From the sequence record PZ583739.1: DNA of 64,000 bases; one strand, given 5' to 3'. Below the pieces are notes generated by a model that was not told the origin of the DNA, searched no databases, and saw only the letters and a program-made list of their open reading frames with translations. Origin of the DNA: a phage. The position numbers and the translations under genes are program-made. Position 1 is the stretch's first letter, and the number at the start of each line of letters is the position of its first letter. Below are positions 2,558-63,755 of the stretch, piece after piece.

Positions 2558-2584
2558 TTTATTCTCCAGTTGTTTTCATTTGTT

Positions 2585-2624
2585 GGTACAGGTCTATAAT
2601 ATCATAACCTGTACCAAAGTAAAC
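2585..2624 (-). promoter_or_regulatory. early sigma70-type promoter with stem-loop (PeSL-like cassette)
   Basis: minus strand GTTTAC-17nt-TATTAT; inverted repeat GGTACAGGT (2585-2593) / ACCTGTACC (2607-2615) brackets the -10. Confidence 0.5.
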
Positions 2625-3305: not shown

Positions 3306-3596
3306 TTATTGACATTGCCTGCGCAAGCCCTCAAGGGGGAACATAGGTTTTGTATATTTAACGACAGGATAACCATAAACCTCGTCATCATACCAACCAC
3401 GACTTAGACAGATAACCTTTTTCTGACGCGTGATAGTACAAAATACATTCAAGAGGTACACCACAAAATTATCGGGGTCTAAAACTATAATGATTCGCAA
3501 ACCATTAATCAGATAATTCGGTGGCTCCTCGGATGATATTAAAGACAATATACAAGCAGGTATCATATTATAGTGGAGGTACCTGCCAACATCCAC
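3306..3596 (-). CDS. hypothetical protein (start uncertain)
   Basis: 96-aa ORF using GTG start; a TATAAT-containing inverted repeat GCAGGTA/TACCTGC (3556-3586) lies inside its 5' end, so the real start may differ. Confidence 0.3.
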   Translation of the reverse strand: MDVGRYLHYNMIPACILSLISSEEPPNYLINGLRIIIVLDPDNFVVYLLNVFCTITRQKKVICLSRGWYDDEVYGYPVVKYTKPMFPLEGLRRQCQ

Positions 3597-6671: not shown

Positions 6672-6703
6672 TTCATTATACACCATCCATGGTGAAAGTA
6701 AAC
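6672..6703 (-). promoter_or_regulatory. early promoter
   Basis: minus strand GTTTAC (6698-6703 rc) - spacer - TATAAT (6675-6680 rc). Confidence 0.45.
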
Positions 6704-8876: not shown

Positions 8877-8904
8877 AATAATTTCCCCAATTTTATAATC
8901 CGTA

Positions 8905-8939
8905 GGAGCATTATACTCTGCTCCCATGAGTTTGTACAC
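8905..8939 (-). promoter_or_regulatory. early promoter with stem-loop (PeSL-like)
   Basis: minus strand GTGTACA ... TATAAT; inverted repeat GGAGCA (8905-8910) / TGCTCC (8919-8924) around the -10. Confidence 0.5.
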
Positions 8940-10454: not shown

Positions 10455-10488
10455 CATTATGTATAGAAAGAAGGGGCTTGTACACCCC
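10455..10488 (-). promoter_or_regulatory. composite terminator hairpin / early promoter
   Basis: hairpin GGGG-cttgtaca-CCCC (10473-10488) follows rnlA; its loop carries the GTGTACAA -35-like motif, CATAAT at 10456-10461 rc. Confidence 0.4.
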
Positions 10489-18460: not shown

Positions 18461-18498
18461 TTTATTCTCCAGTGTTTTAGTTGTTAACTCAGTATGGG

Positions 18499-18531
18499 AC
18501 CATTATGTCATAGCCCCATTTGGTTGTACAC
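18499..18531 (-). promoter_or_regulatory. early promoter with conserved leader
   Basis: minus strand AAAAAGTAGTGTACAA ... CATAAT, then conserved leader ...CATACTGAGTTAAC... Confidence 0.5.
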
Positions 18532-19168: not shown

Positions 19169-19226
19169 TTTAATTTCCTCATTTTTGTTGAGGGAACATG
19201 ATAATATGTTCCCATTGGTTTGTATA

Positions 19227-19478: not shown

Positions 19479-19514
19479 GGTCTATAATAACATAATCATA
19501 GACCCGTTGTAAAC
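19479..19514 (-). promoter_or_regulatory. early promoter with stem-loop (PeSL-like)
   Basis: minus strand GTTTAC (19509-19514 rc) -17nt- TTATTA; inverted repeat GGTCTA (19479-19484) / TAGACC (19499-19504). Confidence 0.45.
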
Positions 19515-19947: not shown

Positions 19948-19958
19948 TACTTTTTGAA

Positions 19959-19984: not shown

Positions 19985-19989
19985 TTATA

Positions 19990-23123: not shown

Positions 23124-23180
23124 ATGAACCTCTGTTCAATTAGTTGACTCGATTATATTAGCATAAAATTTTTAAAGCAA

Positions 23181-26200: not shown

Positions 26201-27175
26201 ACCGCCTCGGGTAATGCTGCTGTACTGAACAACCTTAGCGCCGGAAATGATGTTCAAGCCAAAAATAATTACGTTCTAAATGGTCGTACTATCGCAACCA
26301 CAACGGGTGAAGCTTCTGGTGCAACTCTGGCTCTGGGTGATAACTCGCAGAATTTAGTGCTTAAAACTCTTGATGCTGGTAATATCATAGCAAATGGTGG
26401 CGGTGCATTTAAAGTCCTGACCGAGAAAAACGCTGTTGAGATTGTAGATAGAAACTTTGTTAACCAAGGCGGTGATACAATGTCTGGTGTGCTCCATGTG
26501 AATGCTCCGGTCCGTGTATTCGGTACGAAACCAAGTCTTATCGCACAAGCTCCGACTGCAGATACTGTTGGCTTCTGGTCTGTCGATATCAATGATGAAC
26601 CGACTTATAGTCAGTTCCCTGGTTATTGGACAATGAAGTTAAAACGTCAGGTAAACATTGATACAGTTCAAACTAAACCTGCTGGGGTAACTGATGAAGT
26701 TTGGAATGCTTCTGGTTGGTTAACTGAAAATGGAACTTTCGCCTCGCCTGTTATTCGTTATCGTAATGACGATGGTACACTCGGTGATGAAGTATTAGGT
26801 AGCTCTGGCCAAAAACTGCGCGGAACCTGGTTTGACTATTCGGTTCGTGATAAGGAAGTTAAATACCCTGGTACGTTAACTCAGTTTGGTAATACATTGG
26901 ATTCATGTTATCAGGATTGGGTGTGTTATCCAACTGGATTGAACGGTGGTACTATTCGTTATACTCGTACATGGCAGAAAAATAAATCTGCATGGACGAC
27001 TTTTGCAATGGTTTACACCGCGGATAACCCTCCGTCTGCAGAGGATGTTGGTGCATTACCGGCCGACAACACAACAATGGGGAACTTAACCATTCTCGAT
27101 TGGTTGCGTATCGGTAACGTGCGCATCATCCCAGACCCGACCACTAAATCCGTTAAGTTTGAATGGGTTGAATAA
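23219..27175 (+). CDS. 34: long tail fibre proximal subunit gp34
   Basis: 1318 aa; N-terminus and C-terminal ...GNLTILDWLRIGNVRIIPDPTTKSVKFEWVE match T4 gp34 as remembered. Confidence 0.92.
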   Translation: MADILKPAFRATSGLDAAGEKVINVAKADYSVLSDGVNVGFFIEENTIQQYDATRGYKKNFAVINDNRIWVAQRDIPAPAGAFTPQYWLATRTDPKWETVASPTRQLSSGEFIAVDSAASFTTFTLPPNPTDGDTIVIKDIGGNTGYNEIKVQSSNVPGQGNQKIVRFGNQYPEILITKPFSYNMLIFSNRLWQFWEAGNEERGIRIEPSTGRFHAQAGDFIMRRYTTGAPITFILPKYANQGDIVKSVDIDGMGPTFHLMVETFDTSSSLGKAGQHQMEFRTTGDGFFVYDAAEKLWHVWDGDFKTRLRVIRDSVKLLPNESVIVFGEDNSTPATINIDLPTNVLQGDIVKIALNYLRKSQTVNIRAAVGDKIATDIKLLQFPKRSEYPPDTTWVMVDSLTFNGNISYTPVIELSYAEDAVSGTSYWVVAQNVPTVERVDSLNDSTRTRLGVIALANQTQANVDHENNPEKELAITPQTLANRVAKENQRGIARIATTAQVNQNSDFAFVDDVIISPKKLNERTATETRRGLAELATQQETDAGVDDTTIITPKKLQARQGSESLSGIVTYVSTTGATPAASRELNGTNVYNKNTVNLVVSPKALDQYKATYTQQGAVILAVESEVIAGTSQSGWANAVVTPEMLHRKTALDSRIGLIEIATQVETDAGTDYTRAVTPKTLNDRKASETLTGIAEIATQSEFDTGTDDTRISTPLKIKNRFNNTARTSVNALSGLVETGTLWDHYSLNILEANETQRGTARLATQGEVNTGTDDKTIVTPLKLMSKKATENAEGIVRIATNAEATAGTSKVLAISPSALKYIAQTETTWEASETLRGFVRLSSGTATSAATTTTGAGFTYANGVYTPDPSKLVSYAKSGYAVSPYELNRVLQNFLPINAMAVNAEKLDNLDSTQFIRRDIAQTVEGVLTLTKQTNISAPVVSTSTAVFTDVTAGTSTFGTVNVVNGTNKWKITAPSTGTTMTIGDTTNVLTLNTASGNAAVLNNLSAGNDVQAKNNYVLNGRTIATTTGEASGATLALGDNSQNLVLKTLDAGNIIANGGGAFKVLTEKNAVEIVDRNFVNQGGDTMSGVLHVNAPVRVFGTKPSLIAQAPTADTVGFWSVDINDEPTYSQFPGYWTMKLKRQVNIDTVQTKPAGVTDEVWNASGWLTENGTFASPVIRYRNDDGTLGDEVLGSSGQKLRGTWFDYSVRDKEVKYPGTLTQFGNTLDSCYQDWVCYPTGLNGGTIRYTRTWQKNKSAWTTFAMVYTADNPPSAEDVGALPADNTTMGNLTILDWLRIGNVRIIPDPTTKSVKFEWVE

Positions 27176-27183
27176 GAGGTAAT

Positions 27184-28314
27184 ATGGAAAAATTTATGGC
27201 AGAGTTTGGACAAGGATACGTCCAAACGCCAGTTATATCAGAAAATAATGCCGTTAAATTTAAAATGAGTATAGCAGGGAGCTGTACTCTTTCCACGGTG
27301 AAATCGTATATCAAATTTCAGGATGAACAAATCGGACCAACTACTTTTGGCAATGGTTTGACTCTATTAGAAATTGATACAACTACGAATAAAATTGTTA
27401 ACACGAAAAACTATTCATTGACCAGCACACATGATGTAATCAGTCAGGCATTAATCACCTTTGTGGAATCTGTTCCAGCTGGAAGATTGATTGCTTTTAT
27501 TTCTTCTGGGAAACTAAATGCCTCGCAAACATTAATTGACTGGCTTCGTAAATGTGGCTCAAGAGCATTCCCCGAGAAATGGCTGATTGATAAAGTTGAT
27601 ACATCGTACTCGGCTTTTTACATAACCGGCCGGAACGTAATTGTTTCGGAGCATGTTAAGTATAATGACGGGAAGTTAGTTGAGGATGTTTCGACTCCGC
27701 TTGAAGTCGTTTATGATACCTTTAGTGATATAGGAGCAACAGGCTATCCTGTGCGCATAACGGAAGACGAGAGCACGTATTCATCAACAGGTGATGGAAC
27801 ATCAACCTCAATTAGAAGGTTCCCCACAGAGGACCTGGTGACTCCTATGAGCACATATAACCTTTTACCTTTGGATGTGCTTTACCTGAAGTTTCAGATG
27901 TCATTTGACGCTGAACTGAAAGCCGCCGGGACTGTAAGGACTTCGGTTCGATTCTTTAAAAGTCCTAGCACTTCTCCGATATCAAATACAAACATCGATA
28001 TTGCAGCAAACGTTCCAGCTGGTGCATGGGTAAGTTTCGAAAGATATGTTGAGATTCCAGCGGGAGCCGATGGCTTTACAGTAGTAACATCAAGGACTGT
28101 AGCTGTGGGAACTGGGTCAATACGTAATATTGTTATTGGTGAGATAACCAGAGGTGACTCGGCATTCAAACCAGCTGAATTTGGTGTCAACGGCATAAGG
28201 ATGTCATATGCAAACGATGCAACAAATACAGGCAATACAATTGTAACATTACCAGATGCACAAGCTCCGAGAGCCGGCAAGATATACGCAGCCGAACTAC
28301 GAGAAAAACAATAG
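27184..28314 (+). CDS. 35: long tail fibre hinge protein gp35
   Basis: 376-aa ORF immediately after 34, SD GAGG; position and size as T4 gp35. Confidence 0.8.
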   Translation: MEKFMAEFGQGYVQTPVISENNAVKFKMSIAGSCTLSTVKSYIKFQDEQIGPTTFGNGLTLLEIDTTTNKIVNTKNYSLTSTHDVISQALITFVESVPAGRLIAFISSGKLNASQTLIDWLRKCGSRAFPEKWLIDKVDTSYSAFYITGRNVIVSEHVKYNDGKLVEDVSTPLEVVYDTFSDIGATGYPVRITEDESTYSSTGDGTSTSIRRFPTEDLVTPMSTYNLLPLDVLYLKFQMSFDAELKAAGTVRTSVRFFKSPSTSPISNTNIDIAANVPAGAWVSFERYVEIPAGADGFTVVTSRTVAVGTGSIRNIVIGEITRGDSAFKPAEFGVNGIRMSYANDATNTGNTIVTLPDAQAPRAGKIYAAELREKQ

Positions 28315-28336
28315 GACTCTTCGGAGTCCTTTTTTC
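28314..28336 (+). terminator. rho-independent terminator after gene 35
   Basis: GGACTC-ttcg-GAGTCC followed by TTTTTT. Confidence 0.6.
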
Positions 28337-28338
28337 GT

Positions 28339-28346
28339 TATAAATA
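28339..28346 (+). promoter_or_regulatory. late promoter (TATAAATA) for gene 36
   Basis: exact TATAAATA directly after the terminator, about 35 nt before the gene 36 ATG. Confidence 0.6.
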
Positions 28347-28381
28347 CAAAATATCATATGCCGGTTGAAGAGGACTTATAA

Positions 28382-29029
28382 ATGGCAGATTTAAAACTAG
28401 GCTCAACAGCCGGAGGTTCGGTCCTCTGGCACCAGGGTAATTTCCCATTAACACCAGTCAGTAATGACTTATATTTCAAAACTTATAAAATTTATTCCGA
28501 ATATAACAAGCCACAAGCAGTCGATAACGATTTCGTTTCTAAAGCTCTTGGTGGTAATTATAAAGCAAACGTATATTTTGAACAAGGCCTGACATTTAAT
28601 GATTCAAATGGTTACGGGATTAAGTTGGGGGCGAGAACGGGCGGTGCACCATTTACAGCATCTTTCCGTATTAAAGGGCCGTTTGGATTTGAGACTGAAA
28701 CGGGAACACCATTCGTTATTTTTGACCCTGACACTACGACAGGAGCAAAACGTCTTACTGTTATGGGTGATACGTTAGCTCGACAGATTTATGATGAAAC
28801 AGGACGTGTATTTTCTCCAGGGAATACTCCGTCAAAAGCTCAAGTTGGTCTTAGTAATGTAACTAACCAGCAACAGGTGGAACTAAATAATAGTACATTG
28901 CAAACAATGACAGGTAACTTGTCAGCACCTAATTTCTTCTCTAGGAACCCAGCATCAGACCCGGCTCACGTGCCCCGTTTTGACCAAATCGTTCTTAAAG
29001 ACTCCGTACAAGATTTTGGATATTATTAA
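28382..29029 (+). CDS. 36: long tail fibre distal connector gp36
   Basis: 215-aa ORF between 35 and 37; MADLKLGSTAGGSVLWHQGNFPL... Confidence 0.8.
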   Translation: MADLKLGSTAGGSVLWHQGNFPLTPVSNDLYFKTYKIYSEYNKPQAVDNDFVSKALGGNYKANVYFEQGLTFNDSNGYGIKLGARTGGAPFTASFRIKGPFGFETETGTPFVIFDPDTTTGAKRLTVMGDTLARQIYDETGRVFSPGNTPSKAQVGLSNVTNQQQVELNNSTLQTMTGNLSAPNFFSRNPASDPAHVPRFDQIVLKDSVQDFGYY

Positions 29030-29037
29030 GAGGCATT

Positions 29038-32000
29038 ATGGCTACTTTAAAACAAATACAATTTAAAAGAAGTAAGGTTGCCGGCGTTCGCCCGGCGCCA
29101 ACAGTTCTTGCCGAAGGTGAACTGGCTATCAACTTGAAAGACCGCTTACTTTTTACTAAAGATGACACCGGCGCCATCATTGACCTTGGCTTTGCTAAAG
29201 GCGGTAATATTGATGGTAACGTTATTCATAACGGTAACTACACCCAAACCGGTGCCTATACTATAGCCGGAGCTATTTCACAAACGTCTGGACATTTTAC
29301 TACTACTGGTAATATAATAGCAACCGGTGATGTCACAGCAAAAGCCCGTTTAATGACAGATAATGGTGAAGTTCTTGTACGAGGTACAGGAACCACTCAT
29401 GTTCGATTCCAGGATTTGGCTGATGCTCGAGAAAGAGGTATAATTTATTCTCAAAACCGTACTGGGGATACCAAGCAAATCTTGAACGTTCGTGTTCAGG
29501 ATTACACTAATTCAACATCTAATATTTTTGCATTCAACGGCGATGGTTTATTTTATGCTCCGTCTATTTCCAGCGGAACATCGGTGAAATCTCCAGTAAT
29601 TTATACTAATACCGTTGATACTGGTAATAAATCAGCTCTTGATTATGATATATCTTCATTAGCAAATAATAATCCTGCAAGTTCAAGCGCAACAGCTATT
29701 AACTATCTTAGAATAAGTAGACACGCTGTCGATGGAATTAGGTATCGTGAACTTAATAATGTAAATGGTATTTCATGGCATTCTATTTCTACAGCCGGAA
29801 CAGCTAAGTATCTTTGGTCATTTAATGCAGATGGCGATGTCAAAACATCAAATTCTCTTTCCGTTGGCCTACCTGGGGATAGCTCAGGATACTCAACATT
29901 AGGTCCGTCTGCTATCGCACTTGGTGACAATAACACAGGTTTGAAATGGAAACAAGACGGTCAGTTCCATACAATTAATAATGGAGCTTATACTTTACTT
30001 ACATCTCCAACTGAAGTTACAAGCCTTAAACAGTTAGTTGCGGGTTATTCAACCAACGGTTCTGATTTAATTCTTCCTACAACTCAAAACTATCCATTAG
30101 TTATTGTTAATACTACTAATGATAAAAACGGCTTCGGCGACGGTCAAACTCTTTTAGGTTACCACCAAAGCGGCAAATATCACCATTATTTTCGTGGCAA
30201 AGGTGTAACAAACGTTAACACCGATGGTGGGTTGTTGGTTACTCCTGGCAACGTTGAAGTCCGTGGTGGTTCGGTTAATATTGATGGTCTCAGTAATGCT
30301 TCGACAGTGCTTTTTAAAGGAAATACAACAGGAAGTAGTTCAGTTGATAATATAGAGCTCAAAGTTTGGGGTGACACTTTTAATACAGTAGATGGTTCTC
30401 GTAAAAACGTAGTGGAAATATCCGATGCTACTAGCTGGATGCACTATATTCAACGAACTACAGCAGGTAAAGTCGAATCCTATTTAAATGGTACCATGAA
30501 TGTAATTGAAGGATTGTCTGTCAATCAAGATACATCCTTAAAACGCAATCTGTATGTTTCCAATGAAATTAAAGTTCGCGCGGCGAGTGGTCTTCGTATT
30601 TGGAACGATAAGTACGGTGTTATTTTTCGAAATTCAGAAGACCAGCTGCATATTATCCCAACCAATGTTAATGCCGGCGAAAGTGGCGGATTAGGTCCAT
30701 TACGCCCATTAAGTATTATGTTAGACACGGGTCTGGTTAAAATCCCTAACTTAGAAGCAGACCAGGTTTCTTTTAAGGGTAGCGGCGTATTAGAATTCCC
30801 TAATAGTAGCGGCGCATCTTATGCCAACCAGAACACGACTAAAGCTCCGTTGTATCAAGCACTTGATGCTGCGACTCAAGCATTTTATCCTATTACTAAG
30901 CAGAAAAATATCGATTCGAATGTAACTGTTACGCAAGGTATGGACCGAGCTACGAGCGAATACCGAATTGTTGCCCAAGGTGATTTGCTTGGCGATGGCG
31001 TTACAACCGGATTAAAATACTGGCGCTTTACCAAAGAAGGTAACTTCATGGCCCAGAACCGCTTATATGCCGGTACAGCTTATATGAATACCGATGGTAA
31101 TATTGCAGGTTCTATTTGGAAAAAGTATAGCGGTGCTACTAACCTTGACGCAGCGGTGAATACTCGTGTAGGTAAAGGCGGCGATACAATGACAGGTAAA
31201 TTGGTCATTGATGCTCCAGGCGATCCTTTAGTATTAAAAACAACCGCAGGTAATAGCTCGCATATCCGTTCTGATGTAAATGGTACCGGCAACTGGTATG
31301 TTGGTAAAGGTGGCGATGATAACGGAATAGCTCTTTACAGTTATGCTACCAACTCGGGTATGTACATCACTAATGATGGGGCTTTCAACGTAGAACTTTC
31401 TGGTGCTGGCTTAGCAATGCAGATGAATTATTATCGCATGTATGTTAATGGCCGAGCATGGGTTAATACACAAGGTCATGGTTACGGAAACCAATGGCAA
31501 ACAGAAGCTCCTTATTTCGTCGACTTTGGTGAATCTGTTCCTAAAGATAGCTATATGCCAATTATCAAAGGAAAAAGCACTCTAATTACCGACGGATATT
31601 CTACTAAAGCAGACTTTGGTATTATTCGATTAGGTGGAGCTGCTACTTGGGGTTCTGCTGTTATTCGTGTGGGTTCTGCCGAAAGCGGCGATGCAAGCCA
31701 TCCTAATGCAATATTTGTATTTCAGGCCAATGGTGATTTTGTTGCACCTGCCGGTTTACGAGCCAGAGCTAACCTAGGCGTGGGCACAATCCCGGTATGG
31801 GGCGGCGCATCCATTGCCATTGGGGACGATGACACCGGCTTAGTCCATGGTGGTGACGGTCGAATTAATATGTATGCTAACTCGCAACATATTGCAAGCT
31901 GGGGAGCCGGTTATCAGATTCATGAAGGTCTTTGGGATACCCATGGGGCTTTGTGGACTGAAACAGGAAAAGCTATTATTTCTTATGGGCATTTAGTCCA

Positions 32001-32382
32001 ACAAAGTGATGCCTATTCTACATATGTCCGTGATGTGTATGTCCGTTCTGATATTCGTGTTAAAAAAGACCTTGTTAAATTTGAAAATGCTTCTCGGAAG
32101 CTTTCTAAAATTAACGGCTACACATATATGCAGAAACGTGGAACTGACGAAGAAGGTAATCAGAAATGGGAACCTAATGCTGGTTTAATTGCTCAAGAAG
32201 TTCAAGCTATTTTACCTGAATTGGTTGAAGGCGACCCTGATGGTGAAGCTTTACTTCGTTTGAACTATAACGGTGTAATTGGTTTAAATACAGCTGCAAT
32301 CAATGAGCACACTGCAGAAATAGCAGAATTGAAATCAGAGATTGAAGAACTTAAAGCTTTAGTTAAATCATTGTTAAAATAA
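29038..32382 (+). CDS. 37: long tail fibre distal subunit gp37 with C-terminal chaperone-like module
   Basis: 1114 aa; [43 protein letters not shown]... matches gp37 N-terminus; C-terminal SDIRVKKDL...GYTYMQK... then heptad-like [22 protein letters not shown]. Confidence 0.88.
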
Positions 32383-32387
32383 TAAGA

Positions 32388-32401
32388 GGGGCTTCGGCCC
32401 C
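32388..32401 (+). other. intergenic GC hairpin between genes 37 and 38
   Basis: GGGGC-ttcg-GCCCC directly before the gene 38 SD; no strong T-run, so probably not a full terminator. Confidence 0.35.
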
Positions 32402-32413
32402 TTGGAGGTTTAT

Positions 32414-33196
32414 ATGGCAGTAGTAGGACCGTGGGTAGGGTGGTCTGCGAGGGTACAAACTGGGGACCCTTGGATGGGCGGCGCTGCCCAACGATTGAGA
32501 ATGGGTATTCCGTTTTGGATGAGTAATATGGTAGGTCGGTCTGTTGAAATAATTCACACACTTGGAGCCGACCATAACTTTAACGGGCAATGGTTTAGAG
32601 ACCGTTGTTTTGAAGCCGGTGCTGCCCCTATTGTGTTTAATATCACAGGTGATTTAGTATCTTATACTAAAGATGTTCCGTTGTTCTTTATGTATGGCGA
32701 TACCCCTAATGAATACGTTACTTTGAATATTCACGGCGGGGTCCATATGTGGGGCCGTGGTGGTAACGGTGGGACCCGTGTTTGGGTAGCGGGTACAAAT
32801 GGTGGTGATGTAATTCAAAACGACATTGGTGGCAGACTCCGTATCTGGAACTATGGCGTTATAGCTTCAGGGGGCGGCGGCGGTGCCGGATGTGCTTCAA
32901 ATAACTCTTGGCTTGTGGCGGGTACAGCTGGTGGCGGTGGCGGTAGACCATATGGATTAGGTGGTACTAATGGCGCCGTAAACCCAGGCGGCAACGCTAG
33001 TTATACCGGACCAGGTGGCGGTGGTAGCTTTGGTGGACAGTGGGGTGGTGGTAATGGCGGCGACGCGGGTGGGGCTGGTGGCGGCGCTTACGGACGAAGC
33101 GTTACATACGGCTCACAAGGCGGAGCTGGACGAGCTGTATTCGGAAGTTCTCCTTCATGGGGCGCTACAGGCACTATCTACGGCTCCTGGCTATAG
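32414..33196 (+). CDS. 38: T2-type receptor-binding adhesin gp38 (glycine-rich motifs)
   Basis: ATG 32414 after SD GGAGG (track start 32402 is TTG); [11 protein letters not shown]...; C-terminal half has poly-Gly motifs separated by variable segments. Confidence 0.85.
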
Positions 33197-33207
33197 TACA
33201 TAAGCGC

Positions 33208-33215
33208 TATAAATA
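33208..33215 (+). promoter_or_regulatory. late promoter (TATAAATA) for holin gene t
   Basis: exact TATAAATA about 20 nt upstream of the t ATG. Confidence 0.55.
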
Positions 33216-33233
33216 TCTTTAAAGGAGAAAAGT

Positions 33234-33887
33234 ATGGAACCAAAAGTAGGAATATCAATACCCGACCTACTTTTTGGACTTCTTGATAGAATTTTTAAAG
33301 ATAATGCGACCGGGAAAGTTGTTTTTTCCCGGGTACTAGTTATTGTTCTATTATTTTTAATGGCGGTAATCTGGTATAAAGGTGATGCACTTTTAGATGC
33401 GTACAGGGATGCTTCATATGCCTCATACACAGAAATGATAAGGCAAGACCAGGACAACAGATTTAAAATTGCAGCTATCGAGCAAATCCAGATAGTCCAC
33501 TCGTCAAGTGGGGCAGACTTTACAGCAATATATTCTTTTAGACCAACTAACCTTAACTACTTTGTGGATATGGTGGGATACGAGGGGATATTGCCTGATA
33601 CAGTCGACGAAAAAAATTTAGGTGGGTTTCCAATAGATAAAACTTCGGCGGAATATTTGGCGGGGGTTAATGGTAATTATTTTGAATCCAGTACGGAATC
33701 TGTATTCTTACCAACAAAGAAAAAAAGCAGCTTCTCATATATGTTCAGCTGCCCATTCTTTAATTTGGAAAACGTTTATGCAGGTACAGTCTCACTGTAC
33801 TGGTATAAGCAAAAACCTAACCTTGGTTTTGATAGGCTTTCTGCTATGTGTGGACAAGCAGGTCGTACGCTTGGGCGTACACGTTAG
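33234..33887 (+). CDS. t: holin
   Basis: 217 aa; ...DLLFGLLDRIFKDNATGKV..., ...LNYFVDMVGYEG..., C-terminal ...MCGQAGRTLGRT match T4 holin T as remembered. Confidence 0.9.
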   Translation: MEPKVGISIPDLLFGLLDRIFKDNATGKVVFSRVLVIVLLFLMAVIWYKGDALLDAYRDASYASYTEMIRQDQDNRFKIAAIEQIQIVHSSSGADFTAIYSFRPTNLNYFVDMVGYEGILPDTVDEKNLGGFPIDKTSAEYLAGVNGNYFESSTESVFLPTKKKSSFSYMFSCPFFNLENVYAGTVSLYWYKQKPNLGFDRLSAMCGQAGRTLGRTR

Positions 33888-34217: not shown

Positions 34218-34382
34218 TTATTCCTCTGGGTTGTACACATGATTTTCCATGTGTACAACATATTCCTGATACATCTGTTCAACTGGTTCCTGGAACTTAA
34301 AATCAGCTCCAAGGAATTCCTCAAAGCAAGCCAGCTCGCGTGTACGTTGACCGGTGATGGTGTTCTCTAAGTTATGACTCAT
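34218..34382 (-). CDS. small acidic protein (54 aa), not in ORF track
   Basis: ATG 34382, TAA 34218; MSHNLENTITGQRTRELACFEEFLGADFKFQEPVEQMYQEYVVHMENHVYNPEE; contains a perfect 12-bp inverted repeat. Confidence 0.25.
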   Translation of the reverse strand: MSHNLENTITGQRTRELACFEEFLGADFKFQEPVEQMYQEYVVHMENHVYNPEE

Positions 34383-36493: not shown

Positions 36494-36520
36494 AAAATAA
36501 AAAAGGACCCCGAAGGGTCC
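36494..36520 (-). terminator. rho-independent terminator downstream of gene 52
   Basis: GGACCC-cgaa-GGGTCC with A/T runs. Confidence 0.6.
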
Positions 36521-36614
36521 TAGTCTTTATCTATCTTATTACCAATAAACATACCAACAATCACACCTGCGATTGCCGCGAAAATACAAAGCAATGCAAA
36601 CTCAACTCCAAAAC

Positions 36615-38393: not shown

Positions 38394-38843
38394 TTAATAG
38401 CTCTGCAGAATGAATTTAAAGTTATCAGCAAGCATGCGATTCATTTCTGAAAGGGTCTGACAATCAGAATTATGTGAGCGAGTGAACGCCATCGCAATTT
38501 GACCTTTACCGTAACCAGTTGTCAGAGGTTTCATTTTAGAAACTGGGACAAACAGGACTTCATAGATAACCCCATTGTTCGCCATTGTGCGAGACAGTTG
38601 AGAACGCTGTTTGCGGATGTGACTTAATACAGTGTCAAACCCTTGTTGTGAACGTTGGTTACCAACATAAAAACGTGCGGCAACAATACGTGATTCACCT
38701 TCACCTTTAACCACGAAATAAAAACCTGGTTGAGTGATAGCTTCTTTAGTTGGACGCCCTGCAACATAATTGCCATTATGGATGTAAGCAACAGTGGTAG
38801 CGCCAGCATTCAGTACGTCACGACGGGTCATGTAAGTAGTCAT
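38394..38843 (-). CDS. ndd: nucleoid disruption protein Ndd
   Basis: 149 aa; ...[26 protein letters not shown]..., ...[23 protein letters not shown]..., C-terminal [15 protein letters not shown] match T4 Ndd as remembered. Confidence 0.85.
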
Positions 38844-38881
38844 ATTAATTTCCTCAGTAAGTTAAAGTTTTGTGCTCCAGT

Positions 38882-38917
38882 GGGGTCATTATACTCTGAC
38901 CCCATGAGTTTGTACAC
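38882..38917 (-). promoter_or_regulatory. early promoter with stem-loop (PeSL-like)
   Basis: minus strand GTGTACAA -17nt- TATAAT; inverted repeat GGGGTCA (38882-38888) / TGACCCC (38897-38903) around the -10. Confidence 0.5.
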
Positions 38918-39261
38918 TATTTTTGAAGTTGTTCTAAAATAAATCCGCTGGTGTAAAGGCTTGCATTATACAGGCGGTCAAGAGATAACGAATCCAATCC
39001 ATAAGCTTCACGAATTGCATTGATAACACTTTCATAACTTGTATAATAAACATCGCGATAATCGCGGTCCATAGTCATGCGGAACTTAATAAATTTGTAG
39101 AAACCAGTTTCAGGGTCCTGATAGAATGCAAATTCTGCAGACATCAAATTTTTAAGGTTAACAGCCTTTGTACCACCTGAATAACTTAAATCAAATGCTT
39201 CTGATACGCTAATCTGTTTAAAGAACATAATGTTGCGATTACCAAAAAATACTTTAGACAT
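38917..39261 (-). CDS. hypothetical protein
   Basis: start reset to ATG 39261 with SD AAGGAAAATATT; the upstream gene stop lies within this SD. Confidence 0.45.
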   Translation of the reverse strand: MSKVFFGNRNIMFFKQISVSEAFDLSYSGGTKAVNLKNLMSAEFAFYQDPETGFYKFIKFRMTMDRDYRDVYYTSYESVINAIREAYGLDSLSLDRLYNASLYTSGFILEQLQK

Positions 39262-39648: not shown

Positions 39649-39793
39649 AATATTTTCCTCAGAAGTTAAAGAATACACGTACATGGTCAATCATAAAAAC
39701 GATTGGGAAAATGCTCAATACCATTAACAACACAAACATGTTCCAAATGACTTTAAGTAACTTTTTCATAATCATCTCCAGCAGTTGATAGGT

Positions 39794-39824
39794 TCATTAT
39801 ACTACAACCACCGGAGATGTACAA
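39794..39824 (-). promoter_or_regulatory. early promoter
   Basis: minus strand TGTACA (39818-39824 rc) ... TATAAT (39796-39801 rc) followed by leader ...TCAACTGCTGGAG. Confidence 0.4.
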
Positions 39825-40181: not shown

Positions 40182-40191
40182 TTTGTTTTCC

Positions 40192-40347
40192 TCATGCATA
40201 ACGATTGTATGTATTTTTGCGACACGCGTAAAATTGACGCTCAGTAACTGCAAAACTTTTTCCGCGCTGTTGCATTAATTTAAAAAATTCAGTAATATCG
40301 CCATTAACTTCAAGGTATAAAGTCATTGCATATTGAGCAGGTTTCAT
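40192..40347 (-). CDS. small protein (51 aa), not in ORF track
   Basis: ATG 40347 after conserved CTGGAGAATAAA context; MKPAQYAMTLYLEVNGDITEFFKLMQQRGKSF... Confidence 0.3.
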   Translation of the reverse strand: MKPAQYAMTLYLEVNGDITEFFKLMQQRGKSFAVTERQFYACRKNTYNRYA

Positions 40348-40383
40348 TTTATTCTCCAGTCTGTTTGGTAACTCAGTATGGAA

Positions 40384-40416
40384 TCATTATACAATAGACT
40401 CCATACTGATGTACAC
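40384..40416 (-). promoter_or_regulatory. early promoter with conserved leader
   Basis: minus strand AAAAAGTAGTGTACA -18nt- TATAAT then leader GATTCCATACTGAGTTAC. Confidence 0.5.
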
Positions 40417-40426: not shown

Positions 40427-40702
40427 TTAATTGTGCATTTGTTCTTTAACTTCTTTATATGCGCCAACTGCATTCACGACCCCAGTAAAATCTGCAGTCC
40501 CACGATATAGATAGAAAGCAATTTCAGTCAGGTGGTATACTTCAAATTCTGAAAGATAAATGATAACGTCATAATATGCAACTTGACCCTGGACTTCGTT
40601 GAATGCCACATCAAAAATTTCATGGGTTGGAAAATTGATGTTGTTGTTTTTGAGTGCTTGGATAAGGATTTGTTTGATGTTGTGAGTAGTAACGTGTTCC
40701 AT
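40427..40702 (-). CDS. hypothetical protein
   Basis: start reset to ATG 40702 (MEHVTTHNIKQ...) with SD GAGGA. Confidence 0.4.
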   Translation of the reverse strand: MEHVTTHNIKQILIQALKNNNINFPTHEIFDVAFNEVQGQVAYYDVIIYLSEFEVYHLTEIAFYLYRGTADFTGVVNAVGAYKEVKEQMHN

Positions 40703-40749
40703 GATAATGTCCTCATTTGTTGGTATGAGGACATTATTACACAGTTGGT

Positions 40750-45634: not shown

Positions 45635-45656
45635 ATAAAAAAGGACCCGAAGGTCC
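45635..45656 (-). terminator. rho-independent terminator
   Basis: GGACC-cgaa-GGTCC with flanking A/T runs. Confidence 0.55.
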
Positions 45657-45662
45657 TTTTGG

Positions 45663-45857: not shown

Positions 45858-47690
45858 TTATAGCGTCGCATTCATCCAGTCTTTACGCTGCTGGGAATCT
45901 TTACCGAATAGCATTTCGAACAGTTCTTTCCAATTGTCGGGCAATTGAACAACTTCGAATACTGGCTCGAGCAATACGCGTTTGTACTCTGAATCTTCCA
46001 GAGAACCAAGCCCCTTGATATATCGAATGGTATGCTTCGGAAGTTTATCCTTAGCTTCTTCGTAATCAGGAAGAGAATAGAACCATTCTTGTTTATCTTT
46101 GAGCTGTGCAATAATAACAGGAGTTTTCACAAAGCGAATTCGTCCTTCATGGAACAGCTCTGGCCAGTTACTGAAAAACGCCAATAACGATGGATAGATA
46201 CTACCAACACCATCCACATCCGCATCTGTCATGATAGCAATGTTTCGGTAATTCATATTCTCGGCCGGTTGTCCAATCGTTAAACCAGTAATCGCACACA
46301 CATCAAAGGCTTCAGCGTTCTTCATAACTTCAACAGCTTTCAGACCCCATGTGTTTTTAAACTTACCACGTAACGGATAAGCACCTTGCAATTCACGGTC
46401 ACGAACCTTGATAAACGGACCCGTTGCAGAATCTCCTTCGGTCAGGAATAGAGTCGTTTCCAGCTTATCATTACCCCATTCGTTGGCTTTGATATGCTTT
46501 TGTACCTTGGCCTTTGAAGCTTTCTTATTTGCTTTAGTCTCTGCTGCTTTCTCTGCAGCCAATTTACGAGCCAATGCAGCTTCAATGATAGGCGTCAGAA
46601 TAGCTTCTGATTTTAACAACGAACCAGCTAACTTTTTGCCATCAACCTGGATATGTGATTTAATTTCACCGGCAGGTGAAGTCAATCGCTCCTTAGTCTG
46701 GGAATCAAATCGCATGTTCTTCATATTGCGAATAAACATCAACAATGTAATACATTCTTTAACGCGTGCTTTGGTTACTTCAATTTTATACTTGCGTTTA
46801 ATCGCCGGGATTAACACATCACACATTTCATCCATAACACATTCAATATGGTGACCACCATTTTTTGTATGGATTCCGTTAACATAAGTCACATGACGGA
46901 AACCATCGGGTGACCGACCAATTGCAATTGAGCAATTATCTTGTTCCTGAATAATGATTTCATCATCGTATTGCTTGGCATATTTTTTAAAGTGACCTTG
47001 CACTTTTTTACCATTGAACTTGAATTCGATATCCGGATAAATGACTGCAAGAGTCTGGATTTGGTCAAGCATAATTTGGACATATGTTTCGTCAAAACCA
47101 GACGTTTCAAAATTCGAAAAATCCGGAATAAATTTAACTTTAGTTCCTTGCAACTTTGATGGTTTTGATTTCCATGAAATATTATCAAGTCCATTTGAAC
47201 AATTAACGGTTAATTCATTTTTCCCATCTGATGTAGTGCCTGTGAACAATATTGAAAAAATATTGGTAAGACTGGACCCAACTCCGTTCATCCCAGTGGT
47301 AACACGATTTGCATCATCACTAAAGTTTCCACCCGAACGAACCTTGGTCCATGCAGCGACCGGCCCAGGAATTTCTTCGCCTTCTGGGGTTACAACAATC
47401 GCCTGTGGAATGCCTCGACCATTATCTTCAACGGTCACTTCGTTTGTTTTGATATCAATATTCAATGAAATTTTGTTTGCAAATTTAAAATTGGTGCGAA
47501 TAGCTTCATCAATAGAGTTATTTGCAATTTCTTCGATTAATTTAATTAAACCTGGAACGTATTGAACCTTTTTATATTCACCAAACAGAAAAATTTCTTT
47601 GTCTTCATTGGTAACACTACCGATGTACATTGATGGGCGAGCTTTTACGTGAGCTACATCAGAAAGGATTTGAATTTCATTCTTAATCAT
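45858..47690 (-). CDS. 39: DNA topoisomerase II large subunit (fused gene 39+60 equivalent, GyrB-like)
   Basis: 610-aa continuous ORF; ATPase motifs ...EDNGRGIP..., TOPRIM ...TLFLTEGDSA..., C-terminus continues through the region that is gene 60 in T4. Confidence 0.9.
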   Translation of the reverse strand: MIKNEIQILSDVAHVKARPSMYIGSVTNEDKEIFLFGEYKKVQYVPGLIKLIEEIANNSIDEAIRTNFKFANKISLNIDIKTNEVTVEDNGRGIPQAIVVTPEGEEIPGPVAAWTKVRSGGNFSDDANRVTTGMNGVGSSLTNIFSILFTGTTSDGKNELTVNCSNGLDNISWKSKPSKLQGTKVKFIPDFSNFETSGFDETYVQIMLDQIQTLAVIYPDIEFKFNGKKVQGHFKKYAKQYDDEIIIQEQDNCSIAIGRSPDGFRHVTYVNGIHTKNGGHHIECVMDEMCDVLIPAIKRKYKIEVTKARVKECITLLMFIRNMKNMRFDSQTKERLTSPAGEIKSHIQVDGKKLAGSLLKSEAILTPIIEAALARKLAAEKAAETKANKKASKAKVQKHIKANEWGNDKLETTLFLTEGDSATGPFIKVRDRELQGAYPLRGKFKNTWGLKAVEVMKNAEAFDVCAITGLTIGQPAENMNYRNIAIMTDADVDGVGSIYPSLLAFFSNWPELFHEGRIRFVKTPVIIAQLKDKQEWFYSLPDYEEAKDKLPKHTIRYIKGLGSLEDSEYKRVLLEPVFEVVQLPDNWKELFEMLFGKDSQQRKDWMNATL

Positions 47691-48483
47691 TTTTGACCTC
47701 TAAATTTTTAGTATAACCTAAACATTTCCAACTGGACCATTTTACATCATCGGAATTGCAGCGTTTTCGTAATGTAGGATAACTAATACCAAGAACTTCG
47801 GCGGCTTCTTTTCGGGTTGTGAATATGACCCCATTTATAGAGTACGTTTTAGCCTCGGGATTTTTATCACCAGAGAATAATTTTGATAATTTATCTTTGT
47901 GTTCAAGAGAAAGATGTTTGCCAAAGAAATGATGATTTTCGCCTGCTTTACGCAGGGAGACATTATAACCAAAATCATCGGGGTATGGCTTTCTTTTAAC
48001 ACCAGTTCCATATATTCTATTATATTCGGTTTTATCTAACAGTTTATTCCGTTTTTTAACGGCTTCGCCTTTAAGTAAATTAATTTCCGCTTTTCTTGGA
48101 TGATTGGACATTGTGTCACCACCAAAATCCGCCAACGTTATATTATAACCGTTTTTGATAGAATTTAATTCAGTTATCCAGAAACTTTCTCTTTTCAAGA
48201 AATATTTTTTATTATAAACTTCTATATTTTCTATTAGTTTGCATACAAATGATTCTTTACCGTATTTGTCATATGCAAACTGTAAATGGCTGTTTATGCC
48301 AACACCTTTGGATAAATTCCGAAAATGCGTGGCAATTCTACGATGAAAATCATTTGAACTTCCTATATAATATTTTTGAGATATTAAATTATAAATTATA
48401 TAAATCCCACTATTTCCACTCGATGGTGGAATATAATCAGGAAATTTATTTTTTATTATCCCGAATACTTCATTAATCATCAT
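47683..48483 (-). CDS. free-standing GIY-YIG homing endonuclease (mobile element)
   Basis: 266 aa; N-terminal GIYIIYNLISQKYYIGSS...R...N; basic linker with repeated motifs and C-terminal helix-turn-helix-like ...TTRKEAAEVLGISYPTLRKR; stop overlaps gene 39 start by 8 nt. Confidence 0.8.
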   Translation of the reverse strand: MMINEVFGIIKNKFPDYIPPSSGNSGIYIIYNLISQKYYIGSSNDFHRRIATHFRNLSKGVGINSHLQFAYDKYGKESFVCKLIENIEVYNKKYFLKRESFWITELNSIKNGYNITLADFGGDTMSNHPRKAEINLLKGEAVKKRNKLLDKTEYNRIYGTGVKRKPYPDDFGYNVSLRKAGENHHFFGKHLSLEHKDKLSKLFSGDKNPEAKTYSINGVIFTTRKEAAEVLGISYPTLRKRCNSDDVKWSSWKCLGYTKNLEVKND

Positions 48484-48528
48484 CTTTCCTCTTGTGTATG
48501 GAGGTATTATAAGTCACATGTTTTAAAG

Positions 48529-48546
48529 CAAAAAGGCCCGAAGGCC
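48529..48546 (-). terminator. rho-independent terminator upstream of the homing endonuclease gene
   Basis: GGCC-cgaa-GGCC with flanking A/T runs, between the 48549 gene and the HEG start. Confidence 0.5.
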
Positions 48547-50036: not shown

Positions 50037-50597
50037 TTAGGCACGATGAATATCAGCATACTCAACGATAAAGCTTTCAGGAACCACCTTAAAGGTTCCA
50101 AGGAACACGATGTTATAGAGCTTAACGCCTTCTTCAACCCACTGGTCTGTGATGTAACCAGACATGCTAGTGGTTTCATAAGTACCAAAAGGTTCGTCAA
50201 CATATTCAAACGGTTTAGGTGAAACAAAAAAGACACCTTTGCCCAATTTCCATTTAAAATCAACCCCAACATGAGACTGGTCAATGGTTTCAACGTCTTG
50301 AGCAATTACGCCACGGATATCATTGCTTTCGCACACATATCCATCATGGGATTCAACTTCTTCAACCACAGGGAGGTTGGCGGCAGTAATAGCAGTTGAT
50401 TCCAGGAATTTAGCACGAACATAAGCGAATTGAGTTTCAGTCTGACCATTTTTGGGAATGATACGCACCTTTACTTCATTATCAGGATGGTCAACAAAAA
50501 TATCAGCACGAATACTGACAACCTCAACAAAACGTCCAGCGGCTCTTGAACGAGATTTTTTGGATACGCGAACGATTTCGCCAGCTTCAACTTTCAT
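50037..50597 (-). CDS. hypothetical protein, paralog of the 50677-51429 product
   Basis: 186 aa; C-terminal GYITDQWVEEGVKLYNIVFLGTFKVVPESFIVE matches GWVTDQWIEDGVELLNVVHAGEFTVVPRSMVVE in the neighbour. Confidence 0.5.
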   Translation of the reverse strand: MKVEAGEIVRVSKKSRSRAAGRFVEVVSIRADIFVDHPDNEVKVRIIPKNGQTETQFAYVRAKFLESTAITAANLPVVEEVESHDGYVCESNDIRGVIAQDVETIDQSHVGVDFKWKLGKGVFFVSPKPFEYVDEPFGTYETTSMSGYITDQWVEEGVKLYNIVFLGTFKVVPESFIVEYADIHRA

Positions 50598-50633
50598 AAT
50601 TTTCTCTCTTGGTTAATAAGTTTATTCTCCAGT

Positions 50634-50669
50634 GGGGTCATTATACTCTGACCCCAAGAGTTTGTACAC
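50634..50669 (-). promoter_or_regulatory. early promoter with stem-loop (PeSL-like)
   Basis: near-identical copy of the 38882-38917 element: GGGGTCA / TGACCCC around TATAAT, GTGTACAA upstream. Confidence 0.5.
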
Positions 50670-50676
50670 TTTAAAT

Positions 50677-51429
50677 TTAATTAAAAATTTCAACAACCAT
50701 GGAACGTGGTACAACAGTAAATTCACCAGCATGGACAACGTTCAGGAGTTCAACACCATCTTCAATCCACTGGTCTGTTACCCAACCACAAATGGAACTA
50801 TTAAATGGGCGTTTGATTTGAACTGGTTTGCACAACAAGTCAATAGGGTCACCCAGCTCGCTAACTTCTTCCAGCAGTACAGATTCACGCGGATAAAGGA
50901 TAGCTTCAAGATTGTCACCTGATTCATTGACTGCAGTAAATTCAAAGATGCTTTGGTGATTGTGGTACTTAACTGTTTTAACGGTAAATGGAGCAAATCC
51001 AAAAATACCTTTCAGTACCCGCCAACCAGCATTCAATGCATTAGTATTATCAAAATCACCATATCCAACAAGTTGATAGGTTTTGTCAACTTTGATAGGA
51101 GTTTCTTCAACTTCTTTGAAGAGTTCAATCTCAGCTTCATAAACCGTAATTTTTTCTACTTCATTTGTATCAAGGCGACGTGCATGTAGAATATATGCTT
51201 TATCAAACCAGTTACTTTTTACAAAAGTTTCAACAATAAATTCACCTTCACCTAAAGCATCAGTCAGAGTATTATACCCAGAAACCATAGCTGCGTTTTG
51301 AATAATAGGTTCAATCAGTTGATAAGTTTTGTTAATTTCAATAGTCATATTTTGTTTCTCAAGTTTTAATGGTTTAATTGGGCGAACATACATACTTACA
51401 ACATCAAAGTCAATAAATTCTGGTTTCAT
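50677..51429 (-). CDS. hypothetical protein, paralog of the 50037-50597 product
   Basis: 250-aa ORF sharing its C-terminal module with the neighbour. Confidence 0.5.
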   Translation of the reverse strand: MKPEFIDFDVVSMYVRPIKPLKLEKQNMTIEINKTYQLIEPIIQNAAMVSGYNTLTDALGEGEFIVETFVKSNWFDKAYILHARRLDTNEVEKITVYEAEIELFKEVEETPIKVDKTYQLVGYGDFDNTNALNAGWRVLKGIFGFAPFTVKTVKYHNHQSIFEFTAVNESGDNLEAILYPRESVLLEEVSELGDPIDLLCKPVQIKRPFNSSICGWVTDQWIEDGVELLNVVHAGEFTVVPRSMVVEIFN

Positions 51430-56411: not shown

Positions 56412-56470
56412 AATGGTCTCTCTGTTGTAAGAAAGACCATTATGTCATTAGGAGGGGAGTAAGTAAACTA

Positions 56471-56644
56471 CTATTTCCATGGTGCCCATGGAGGTGGGTC
56501 GTCGTAATATGAGGCCAGGTCGCGTAGAACTTCCAACGGGAGACTAAAACCATGCTTCTGTATAATCACATCAAGCTCATCAACTAGGTCCACACGGGCT
56601 TCTGTGGGAGCTTTAGGCTCTTCAAAAAGTTCAAATAAATCCAT
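56471..56644 (-). CDS. small acidic protein (57 aa), not in ORF track
   Basis: ATG 56644; [57 protein letters not shown]. Confidence 0.3.
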   Translation of the reverse strand: MDLFELFEEPKAPTEARVDLVDELDVIIQKHGFSLPLEVLRDLASYYDDPPPWAPWK

Positions 56645-58011: not shown

Positions 58012-58054
58012 AGTATTCTCCTCTGTAGTTGAGATAATTATACCATCTCTATTA

Positions 58055-63134: not shown

Positions 63135-63172
63135 ATAGGGATAATATACTGCATTACCCCTTTGATGTAAAC
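63135..63172 (-). promoter_or_regulatory. early promoter upstream of sp
   Basis: minus strand GTTTAC (63167-63172 rc) ... TATATTAT; leader CCCTATCAACTACTGAGGAG. Confidence 0.4.
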
Positions 63173-63722: not shown

Positions 63723-63755
63723 ATTATAACATAAGAAAAAGGGGCTGTAAGCCCC
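63723..63755 (-). promoter_or_regulatory. composite terminator hairpin / early promoter
   Basis: hairpin GGGGC-tgtaa-GCCCC (63741-63755) then T-run and TTATAAT on the minus strand, leader CCCTATCAACTACTGGAGAATAAA. Confidence 0.4.

Follow-up and report, generated by a model that had tools for sequence, protein, structure and literature searches.

Hairpins that enclose the -10 hexamer of early promoters are a real and significant feature of the phage DNA analysed here, where they occur far above chance. The window, i.e. the whole 64,000-nt stretch of sequence record PZ583739.1, is from a T4-like coliphage of the genus Gaprivervirus, and its promoter cassettes are almost certainly, judging from their layout, of the PeSL type (promoter-early stem-loops) and of the subclass with a stem-loop overlapping the -10. 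Here, we present evidence that the arms of these hairpins covary, which supports the view that the hairpin itself is maintained by selection. Overall, PeSL-type cassettes with a hairpin that would form specifically in read-through RNA are the explanation that we consider reasonably probable. This kind of element was published in 2010 and is not a new kind of system; the added value of the present analysis lies in the orthologous covariation, the strand-bias argument and a rationale for the geometry, and its main relevance is to the annotation and evolution of T4-like phages.

The ndd cassette and other early promoters of the window

Approximately 6 kb around the focal site is 95.5% identical to Escherichia phage vB_EcoM_RZ (RZ; Straboviridae, Tevenvirinae, Gaprivervirus) and 94-97% identical to VR20, VR26, TH22 and others. 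Genes in the window lie on the minus strand, apart from a tail-fibre block at 23219-33887, and by the annotation of RZ the focal site (38882-38903) is located in the gap upstream of ndd and its twin (50634-50655) in the gap upstream of motB.

The complete ndd cassette (38841..38919, minus strand) spans from the stop codon of the upstream ORF to the ndd ATG, and the site reads aaaaaTAG-TGTACA-aactcaTGGGGTCAgagTATAATGACCCCActggag on the coding strand. The TAG stop (38919-38917) directly precedes the -35 TGTACA (38916-38911), with a spacer of 17 nt separating the latter from the -10 TATAAT (38893-38888). Further downstream are a fossil GGAG module, the true SD GAGGA and the ATG at 38843. The focal hairpin (38881..38904, minus strand) consists of the 5' arm TGGGGTCA (38904-38897), the loop GAGTATAA and the 3' arm TGACCCCA (38888-38881), or, with the outer pair in brackets, (T)GGGGTCA in the distal spacer and TGACCCC(A). 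The -10 is in the loop, its last T being the closing T and first base of the 3' arm, and this arm stops 6-7 nt past the -10. With 8 Watson-Crick bp, the hairpin has a minimum free energy (MFE) of -17.0 kcal/mol and z = -3.06. The paralogous motB cassette (50595..50679, minus strand; -35 at 50668-50663, -10 at 50645-50640) is nearly identical to the ndd cassette over ~45 nt and carries an identical copy of the hairpin, TGGGGTCA / TGACCCCA, at 50633..50656 on the minus strand (MFE -18.3 kcal/mol, z = -3.56). Both sites have TGTACA-17-TATAAT (38916-38888 and 50668-50640), which at the sequence level is the pattern of a sigma-70-like early promoter.

These two sites were among six inverted repeats reported in the initial annotation, where the -10 was said to sit in the loop of repeats belonging to promoter cassettes. 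The arms are as quoted for all six pairs, and five of the sites do lie in minus-strand, sigma-70-type early promoters, with an A-rich tract, the -35 T(G/T)TACA, a spacer of 16-18 nt, the -10, and then CAACTAC..GGAG/GAGGA..ATG. The sixth, GCAGGTA / TACCTGC at 3556..3586 (minus strand), is without promoter context and was dropped as a promoter element, as no -35 is found at a usable distance from its TATAAT, which directly adjoins an ATG. This stretch is missing or different in relatives, and its fold is no better than that of shuffles (z = -1.07).

For the promoter search, all minus-strand intergenic gaps were read, a scan for T(G/T)TACA-N16-18-TAnnnT was made, and the promoter set was defined by the phage-specific -35 T(G/T)TACA with SD and ATG required. 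Gap reading and scan together yielded 25 plausible early promoters, including a few false positives (e.g. 21978 and 15617) by which the statistics are diluted. A generic sigma-70 consensus scan, which also picks up the hexamer pairs of focal-type sites, found 56 sites vs 49.7 expected from shuffles, i.e. no enrichment, and was therefore useless for establishing the promoter set; the phage-specific definition was used instead. In nearly all window promoters, the 15 nt upstream of the -35 are 60-93% A+T, typically aaaaagtag. No Rfam family matched the window when its full length was scanned at gathering thresholds.

The 25 promoters were sorted by folding the core together with 70 nt upstream. 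In nine of them, a stable hairpin encloses the -10 or overlaps it (-10.8 to -19.2 kcal/mol; -10 positions 2601, 8915, 18507, 19203, 19489, 38893, 40391, 50645 and 63148), and their RNA folds have z from -2.2 to -5.2. In addition to the ndd and motB copies, these are, all on the minus strand, (G)GGAGCA / TGCTCC(T) at 8904..8925, around the -10 TATAAT 8915-8910 (z = -2.94) and in the same register as at the focal site; the 11-bp TTGGTACAGGT / ACCTGTACCAA at 2583..2617, around TATTAT 2601-2596 (z = -4.58), which is conserved across 14 genomes, '988' being the one to carry a G·U variant; (G)GGTCTAT / ATAGACC(T) at 19479..19505, around and overlapping TATTAT 19489-19484 (z = -3.69), with arms AGGTCTATAG/CTATAGACCT and AGGTCT/AGACCT in orthologues; GGGAACAT / ATGTTCCC at 19192..19213, with a -10-like loop ATTATC (z = -3.67); TCAGTATGGA / TCCATACTGA at 40373..40409, 10 bp with a 17-nt loop around TATAAT 40391-40386 (z = -5.21); AUGGGGCUAU / AUGGUCCCAU at 18494..18519, around CATAAT 18507-18502 (z = -2.49), where two of the pairs are G·U and the hairpin thus forms on the sense strand only; and AGGGGTAATG / TATTATCCCT at 63137..63161, which includes G·U pairs and overlaps TATATT 63148-63143 (z = -2.23).

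Hairpin position varies among the window promoters, from around the -10 to the spacer, the -35, upstream and downstream. A hairpin lies inside the spacer in one or two promoters (6680; CACCAT gg ATGGTG at 6681..6694, minus strand, between -35 and -10) and around the -35 in three (10461, 63728 and 34214). The first two of these are followed by a T-run and are terminator-like: at 10473..10488 (minus strand) GGGG and CCCC enclose the -35 in the loop TGTACAAG, with a T-rich spacer next to it, and at 63741..63755 (minus strand) GGGGC [TTACA] GCCCC has the -35 in its loop and is followed by TTTTTCTT. Four promoters (3044, 19923, 36459 and 45609) have a separate canonical terminator just upstream, with a CUUCGG-type loop and a T-run, and at two (40738 and 56444) a downstream hairpin buries the promoter's own SD or AUG. 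Neither hairpin nor terminator was found at 7 of the 25 promoters in these folds, and the element is thus not obligatory.

Enrichment and covariation of the arms

As a null model, we used chimeras that combine one promoter's spacer with the -10 and following sequence taken from an unrelated promoter, which preserves position-specific composition. Within the window, a stem was counted by its Watson-Crick bp if 4 nt or more of the -10 lay between its arms; only Watson-Crick counts are reported, because the region is AT-rich and allowing G·T pairs inflated the background. Stems of at least 6 bp are present at 7 of the 25 promoters vs 9.4% in chimeras (p = 0.007) and stems of at least 7 bp at 6 of the 25 vs 0.8%, while with the three near-identical cassettes of the window collapsed to one the count at the 6-bp threshold is 5/23 (p = 0.06). 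The larger set comprises 240 unique promoters, taken from the window, from RZ and from 50 IMG/VR loci that represent about 13 related genomes. Here, stems of at least 6 bp occur in 34% of the promoters (6.2% in chimeras and 7.0% in spacer shuffles), of at least 7 bp in 21% (1.6% and 1.9%), and of at least 8 bp in 16% (0.4% in both). When every helix of 6 bp or more between -80 and +60 was mapped across all promoters, the highest peak fell on the centre of the -10 hexamer, with secondary peaks at the positions of the upstream terminator, the -35 and the 5'-UTR.

The initial annotation held that the arms differ between copies while remaining complementary. This is true of paralogues within the window, where the focal GGGGTCA/TGACCCC and GGGAGCA/TGCTCC at 8915 differ at two doubly compensated positions, and it is seen more convincingly in orthologues. 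The ndd promoter has GGGGTCA/TGACCCC in Gaprivervirus vs CGAGAATCA/TGGTTCTCG in Dhakavirus-like genomes, with the register unchanged. Four arm variants are found among motB orthologues: GGGGTCA/TGACCCC in the window, RZ and '408'; GGGGCCA/TGGTCCC in '394' and '401'; GAGAGCCA/TGGCTCTC in '865', from which '520', '671' and JS98 each deviate by a single G·U; and GGGACCA/TGGTCC(T) in the third clade. At the 6680 promoter, the spacer hairpin of Gaprivervirus corresponds to a -10-bracketing GGTAGGAC/GTCCTACC in Dhakavirus-like genomes. That a hairpin is kept at orthologous promoters despite replaced arms is stronger evidence of selection than the original comparison of paralogues.

The covariation statistics over this and related genomes that had been suggested as a check were obtained in a fixed-register test on alignment A1, which includes all 46 unique TATAAT promoters with no selection for pairing. 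In total, 69.3% of the cells are paired vs 60.3% in shuffles and the covariation score is 0.431 vs 0.283, the observed value being reached by 0 of 500 shuffles in both cases, although the 46 sequences are related and these figures are not strict probabilities. Sliding the partners by 1-3 columns, a control that retains this relatedness, gives scores of 0.17-0.26, still well below the observed one. Selection for the hairpin itself, as originally proposed, is thus supported by the enrichment, the replacement of arms between orthologues and the fixed-register covariation.

The same comparisons bear on two rival explanations. One is a site for a dimeric, sequence-specific regulator overlapping the -10, in favour of which is the dyad symmetry centred on a promoter element; however, the sequence of the arms, their length and their distance to the -10 differ between promoters, even between orthologues, and such a site was rejected in view of the lack of a common half-site, which leaves it very improbable indeed. 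The other is that complementarity is made or repaired by mutation, through template switching where the sequence is quasi-palindromic, and through gene conversion or recombination between repeated cassettes. The cassettes have clearly been copied and recombined, as the near-identical ndd and motB copies illustrate, and there are chimeric promoters with a 3' half from another cassette and mismatched arms (p3044 orthologues in Dhakavirus-like genomes). Additionally, the loop is exactly inverted between orthologues at 19192-19213 (ATTATC vs GATAAT, inverted in two relatives) and, in clade C, upstream of ndd (GTATTCAT vs ATGAATAC), showing template switching or inversion at the repeats. Nevertheless, a purely mutational origin would leave unexplained that repeats are centred on the -10 in one third of independent promoters, that completely different arms occur at the same orthologous promoter, that intermediates are G·U rather than A·C, and that a terminator tends to lie just upstream of promoters lacking an internal hairpin, and we regard it as improbable.

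Structure in RNA or in DNA

Of the mechanisms put forward in the initial annotation, i.e. a cruciform, a dimeric regulator site and an RNA hairpin in read-through transcripts, the last fits both the position of the arms and the sense-strand G·U pairs, whereas the regulator is contradicted and the cruciform disfavoured. The RNA hairpin is the best of the three because the arms lie at or upstream of the expected start and because intermediates, when read on the sense strand, are almost always G·U and not A·C. Such a bias is informative because the strand opposite a G·T pair has A·C, which is a mismatch. Within helices that have at least 6 Watson-Crick pairs, internal mismatches comprise 29 G·T/T·G and 8 A·C/C·A (1058:856 in chimeras), or about 19:6 when grouped by hand into independent events. 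By reading, nine wobble intermediates and no A·C were counted in the GGGNNCA/TGNNCCC family, and the RB49 sequences add two G·T and no A·C. When both strands were folded, the sense RNA was the more stable in 62 of 71 structured cores (252:172 in structured chimeras), with mean fold energies of -14.0 kcal/mol for sense vs -10.7 kcal/mol for antisense. Sense is also favoured in 17 and antisense in 6 of the 23 sequence clusters, including every multi-member cluster for sense; this ratio is only modestly significant, with p = 0.035 when tested against 0.5 but p = 0.11 when the composition-matched 0.594 is taken as the reference. Mutation from C to T with a strand bias could account for part of the wobble bias, since a C-to-T change on the sense strand always gives a wobble pair. 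The strand bias therefore points to a structure of the sense strand, most simply RNA, in a manner that is suggestive rather than decisive, and represents a first, modest argument for the structure working in RNA and not in DNA.

A structure in DNA would be either a cruciform or a single-strand hairpin arising during replication or recombination, which would switch the promoter off under supercoiling or provide a recombination hot-spot recognised by a structure-specific enzyme. The two exact loop inversions show that the arms interact at the DNA level at least occasionally, the breakpoints of indels and promoter swaps are at cassette edges, and one mini-circle crossover has been mapped inside the loop of a stem-loop (Arbiol et al., PMC2839356). 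In the relatives, the same genes are found behind different cassettes and there are cassettes with halves from different promoters, and in a comparison with a VR20-like genome the starting points of three indels coincide exactly with cassette edges (40185-40344, 8874/8877 and 56472/56477); swaps and edge indels agree with the published role in recombination. However, arms as short as these (6-11 bp) with loops as long (6-17 nt) are unfavourable for cruciform extrusion, the wobble bias of the sense strand argues against a structure that needs both strands, and loop flips may simply accompany any inverted repeat as a passive side effect. We thus consider a DNA structure unlikely as the main explanation. 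Dual use, in which an RNA hairpin would mark the origin of a transcript while DNA extrusion is recognised by a structure-specific phage enzyme, is less likely still; if true, the cassettes would be quasi-site-specific recombination modules moving small ORFs together with their own promoter, and the enzyme would have left its traces in the two loop inversions and in the breakpoints located at the edges of cassettes.

The preferred reading, a hairpin on read-through RNA, follows from the geometry of the promoter. In this reading, each cassette is a strong sigma-70 early promoter located between genes. Transcription from sigma-70 promoters generally starts ~7 nt after the -10. At the sites studied here the -10 is in the loop and the 3' arms reach about 6-13 nt past it, so that, with the start assumed at this distance, the 3' arm ends at about -1 to +7. 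By position, the promoter's own transcription would begin at or inside the 3' arm, and its transcript would thus be without the 5' arm and unable to fold. Both arms lie at the predicted start or upstream of it, and folding would thus be limited to RNA reading through from upstream: transcripts from the upstream, co-oriented early gene would carry both arms and form a stable hairpin. In this arrangement, the distal spacer and the stretch from the -10 to the start, neither of which is read base-specifically by RNA polymerase, are complementary to each other, and the -10 hexamer consequently sits in the loop. Only these two segments of the promoter escape sequence constraint, and because the arms fill them, about 40 bp can accommodate both the promoter and a hairpin specific to read-through RNA.

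On read-through RNA, the hairpin may act as an attenuator or terminator, or as an insulator of 3' ends between successive early transcription units, and the repeated cassettes may also serve as short homology patches for gene shuffling. The -10 class does not consist of canonical intrinsic terminators, an identity that was rejected as the hairpin is present and the U-tract absent: no U-tract follows any of the -10-bracketing hairpins, the tails being ACUGGAG, AUCAACUAC and similar, and a terminator scan calls none of them, yet it does call the neighbouring CUUCGG hairpins with T-runs. A separate upstream terminator is found at 0 of the 9 promoters with an internal -10 hairpin, while 7 of the 16 others have either a canonical terminator just upstream (4) or a hairpin around the -35 (3). 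This complementary distribution fits an internal hairpin doing the job of the terminators and insulating early units. A role as attenuator or insulator on read-through RNA, supported experimentally by analogy with an RB49 stem-loop, has an even or slightly better chance of being correct.

Alternatively, the hairpin could discriminate at translation between transcripts of different origin, with those from the internal promoter being translated, as in the T4 genes e, soc, 49 and I-TevI, which provide a precedent (PMC3014915). This holds for a subset, as a minority of helices (39801 type) do include the SD: the spacer CTCCGGTGGTTG at 39801 pairs with CAACT(A/G)CTGGAG, SD included, and clade-C relatives have TCCTCGGT/ACTGAGGA and CCTCCGTGGT/ACTACGGAGG. 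At the focal sites, however, the 3' arm contains neither SD nor start codon and ends 25-35 nt before the real SD, so the ribosome binding site (RBS) is not sequestered, and as a general account this has a low probability.

Relation to PeSLs and other known systems

In the T4 genes e, soc, 49 and I-TevI, the DNA encoding an inhibitory hairpin also contains a promoter, and only RNA initiated at this promoter escapes the fold (PMC3014915). Shared with the sites studied here are the location of the promoter within a hairpin-coding segment, the folding of read-through RNA and the absence of the 5' arm from promoter-initiated RNA, given the start predicted above. The T4 promoters are late ones (TATAAATA) and their hairpins bury the SD or AUG, whereas those of the focal sites are early, sigma-70-type promoters with an untouched RBS. 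The C(UUCG)G-loop terminators of T4-like phages resemble the -10 hairpins in being GC-rich and located between early genes, upstream of or overlapping the next promoter, and the two show a mutually exclusive pattern in the window; the -10-bracketing hairpins differ in having no U-tract and larger, AU-rich loops. Promoters, engineered or natural, in which an inverted repeat over the -10 or -35 exerts control by extruding as a cruciform were reportedly described by Horwitz and Loeb in 1988. Here too, the inverted repeat spans core promoter elements. Cruciform-controlled promoters need long, perfect repeats with short loops and are symmetric on both strands. In contrast, the window sites have arms of 6-11 bp, loops of 6-17 nt and a conservation that is strand-biased, more weakly so at the level of clusters.

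The closest match is to the PeSLs, which Arbiol et al. (2010; PMC2839356) defined in the coliphages RB49 and phi1 as an AT-rich tract, consensus sigma-70 boxes and a stem-loop, followed by SD and start codon, with stems that are often GGGG..CCCC and include G-T pairs. Five positional subclasses were distinguished, the commonest having the stem-loop between the -35 and -10 or overlapping the -10, and PeSLs, which have been implicated in mini-circles and in the shuffling of ORFs, were found to be enriched in hyperplastic regions (PMC2839356). Promoter and attenuator/terminator activity was demonstrated for selected RB49 and phi1 elements, the PeSL211/210 stem-loop of RB49 reducing lacZ expression as much as rrnB T1, and along with the crossover in a stem-loop a recombination protein binding GGGG..CCCC was speculated upon (PMC2839356). 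The assayed stem-loop (AGGGGAT-cacgt-ATCCCCT) lies in the spacer, is of the spacer class and comes from another genus. RB49 also has examples overlapping the -10, i.e. GGGAGTA-gtaaga-TACTCCC, GGGGATAT-agcata-ATATCCCC and GGGTGTAT-atcata-ATACACCC. PeSL-like sequences were noted in JS98 (PMC2839356), and Comeau et al. (2014; PMC4122927) described further PeSLs, with other stem consensus sequences, in T4/PST and KVP40/nt-1.

The sorting of the window promoters corresponds to the five positional subclasses of Arbiol et al. (PMC2839356). Neither the published PeSL architecture nor the variation in hairpin position between promoters was recognised in the initial annotation.

At the sequence level, the window elements have every feature by which PeSLs are defined. 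Both PeSLs and the Gaprivervirus cassettes are intergenic, with an AT-rich tract, sigma-70-like -35 and -10, a stem-loop, an SD and a start codon; both occur in many copies per genome, with stems that are often GGGG..CCCC with G·T pairs and a stem-loop position that varies and includes the surroundings of the -10; and, as PeSLs do, the Gaprivervirus cassettes may tend to occur next to small ORFs and at indels that distinguish close relatives. The differences are that the genus here is Gaprivervirus, with orthologues in Dhakavirus-like genomes and a third clade, that the -35 is T(G/T)TACA here and TTGACA there, and that the arms are less G/C-homopolymeric. Further, the -10-bracketing position dominates here, whereas RB49 frequently has the spacer position and T4/PST the upstream one. 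The PeSL architecture is thereby extended to Gaprivervirus, where it was previously uncatalogued, and to Dhakavirus-like relatives.

Middle-type promoters, terminators and a palindrome

Stems bracketing the -10, that is, inverted repeats with the -10 in their loop as at the early promoters, were found at none of five middle-type promoters in the window (about 7030-7050, 23150-23180, 48500-48520, 58030-58050 and 59180-59200), all of which carry a MotA-box-like GCTTTA about 12 nt 5' of TATAAT. Canonical intrinsic terminators, with a C(UUCG)G-type tetraloop and a T-run, lie on the minus strand directly 5' of promoters without an internal hairpin (about 3060-3100, 19950-19985, 36504-36521, 45639-45660, 48520-48545 and 58050-58085). 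Additionally, a perfect 11-bp palindrome, TTGTACACATG-gaaaat-CATGTGTACAA (34231-34258, minus strand), holds in its 3' arm the -35 of the promoter preceding the anti-sigma (asiA-like) gene.

Cassette origin and variation among relatives

At 38870-38880 and 50620-50632 (minus strand), directly 3' of the focal hairpins of the ndd and motB promoters, the sequence ACTGGAG(AATAAA) is a fossil ribosome-binding module. Both copies of the module are without an ATG and lie 25-30 nt ahead of the real SD, which suggests that the focal cassette was copied in from a ...ACTGGAGAATAAAATG-type promoter. Small-ORF indels distinguish the window from genomes like that of the relative VR20 (40185-40344, 8874-8877, 56472-56477, 15548-15856 and 7462-7651), and in three of these five the start coincides precisely with a promoter-cassette boundary.

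Hairpin loops are also inverted between orthologues. At 19192-19213 the window reads GGGAACAT-ATTATC-ATGTTCCC and two relatives read GGGAACAT-GATAAT-ATGTTCCC, while about 70 nt upstream of ndd (loci L010 and L011) one clade-C relative has GGCCGC-GTATTCAT-GCGGCC and another GGCCGC-ATGAATAC-GCGGCC, the loop inversion being exact in both cases. These inversions are a footprint of hairpin or inverted-repeat activity at the DNA level. A further difference, the minus-strand ORF at 47683-48483 with GIY-YIG, NUMOD3 and I-TevI DNA-binding domains, adjoins the topoisomerase large-subunit gene and is a free-standing homing endonuclease polymorphism; in its place the phage RZ has a different, non-alignable endonuclease gene and VR20-like genomes have none.

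Hairpins covering the SD and start codon

Two minus-strand hairpins located 3' of the -10, within the promoter's own transcript, bury both SD and AUG, namely AAUGGUCUUUCU..AGAGAGACCAUU-AUG (56411-56444) and AUAAUGUCCUCAU..AUGAGGACAUUAU-c-AUG (40702-40738), and are probably translational control elements. The arms of the former covary among relatives, from GGTCT/AGACC through GGTCT/AGGCC (U·G) to GGCCT/AGGCC.

At the early promoter with its -10 at 39801 (39775-39823, minus strand), the spacer CTCCGGTGGTTG and the stretch CAACTGCTGGAG, in which the downstream gene has its SD, are complementary, and this pairing is maintained in relatives, with G·U variants. The SD would thereby be hidden in read-through RNA entering from the upstream early gene and exposed in RNA initiated at the promoter itself, so that transcript origin would determine its accessibility, as at T4 gene e.
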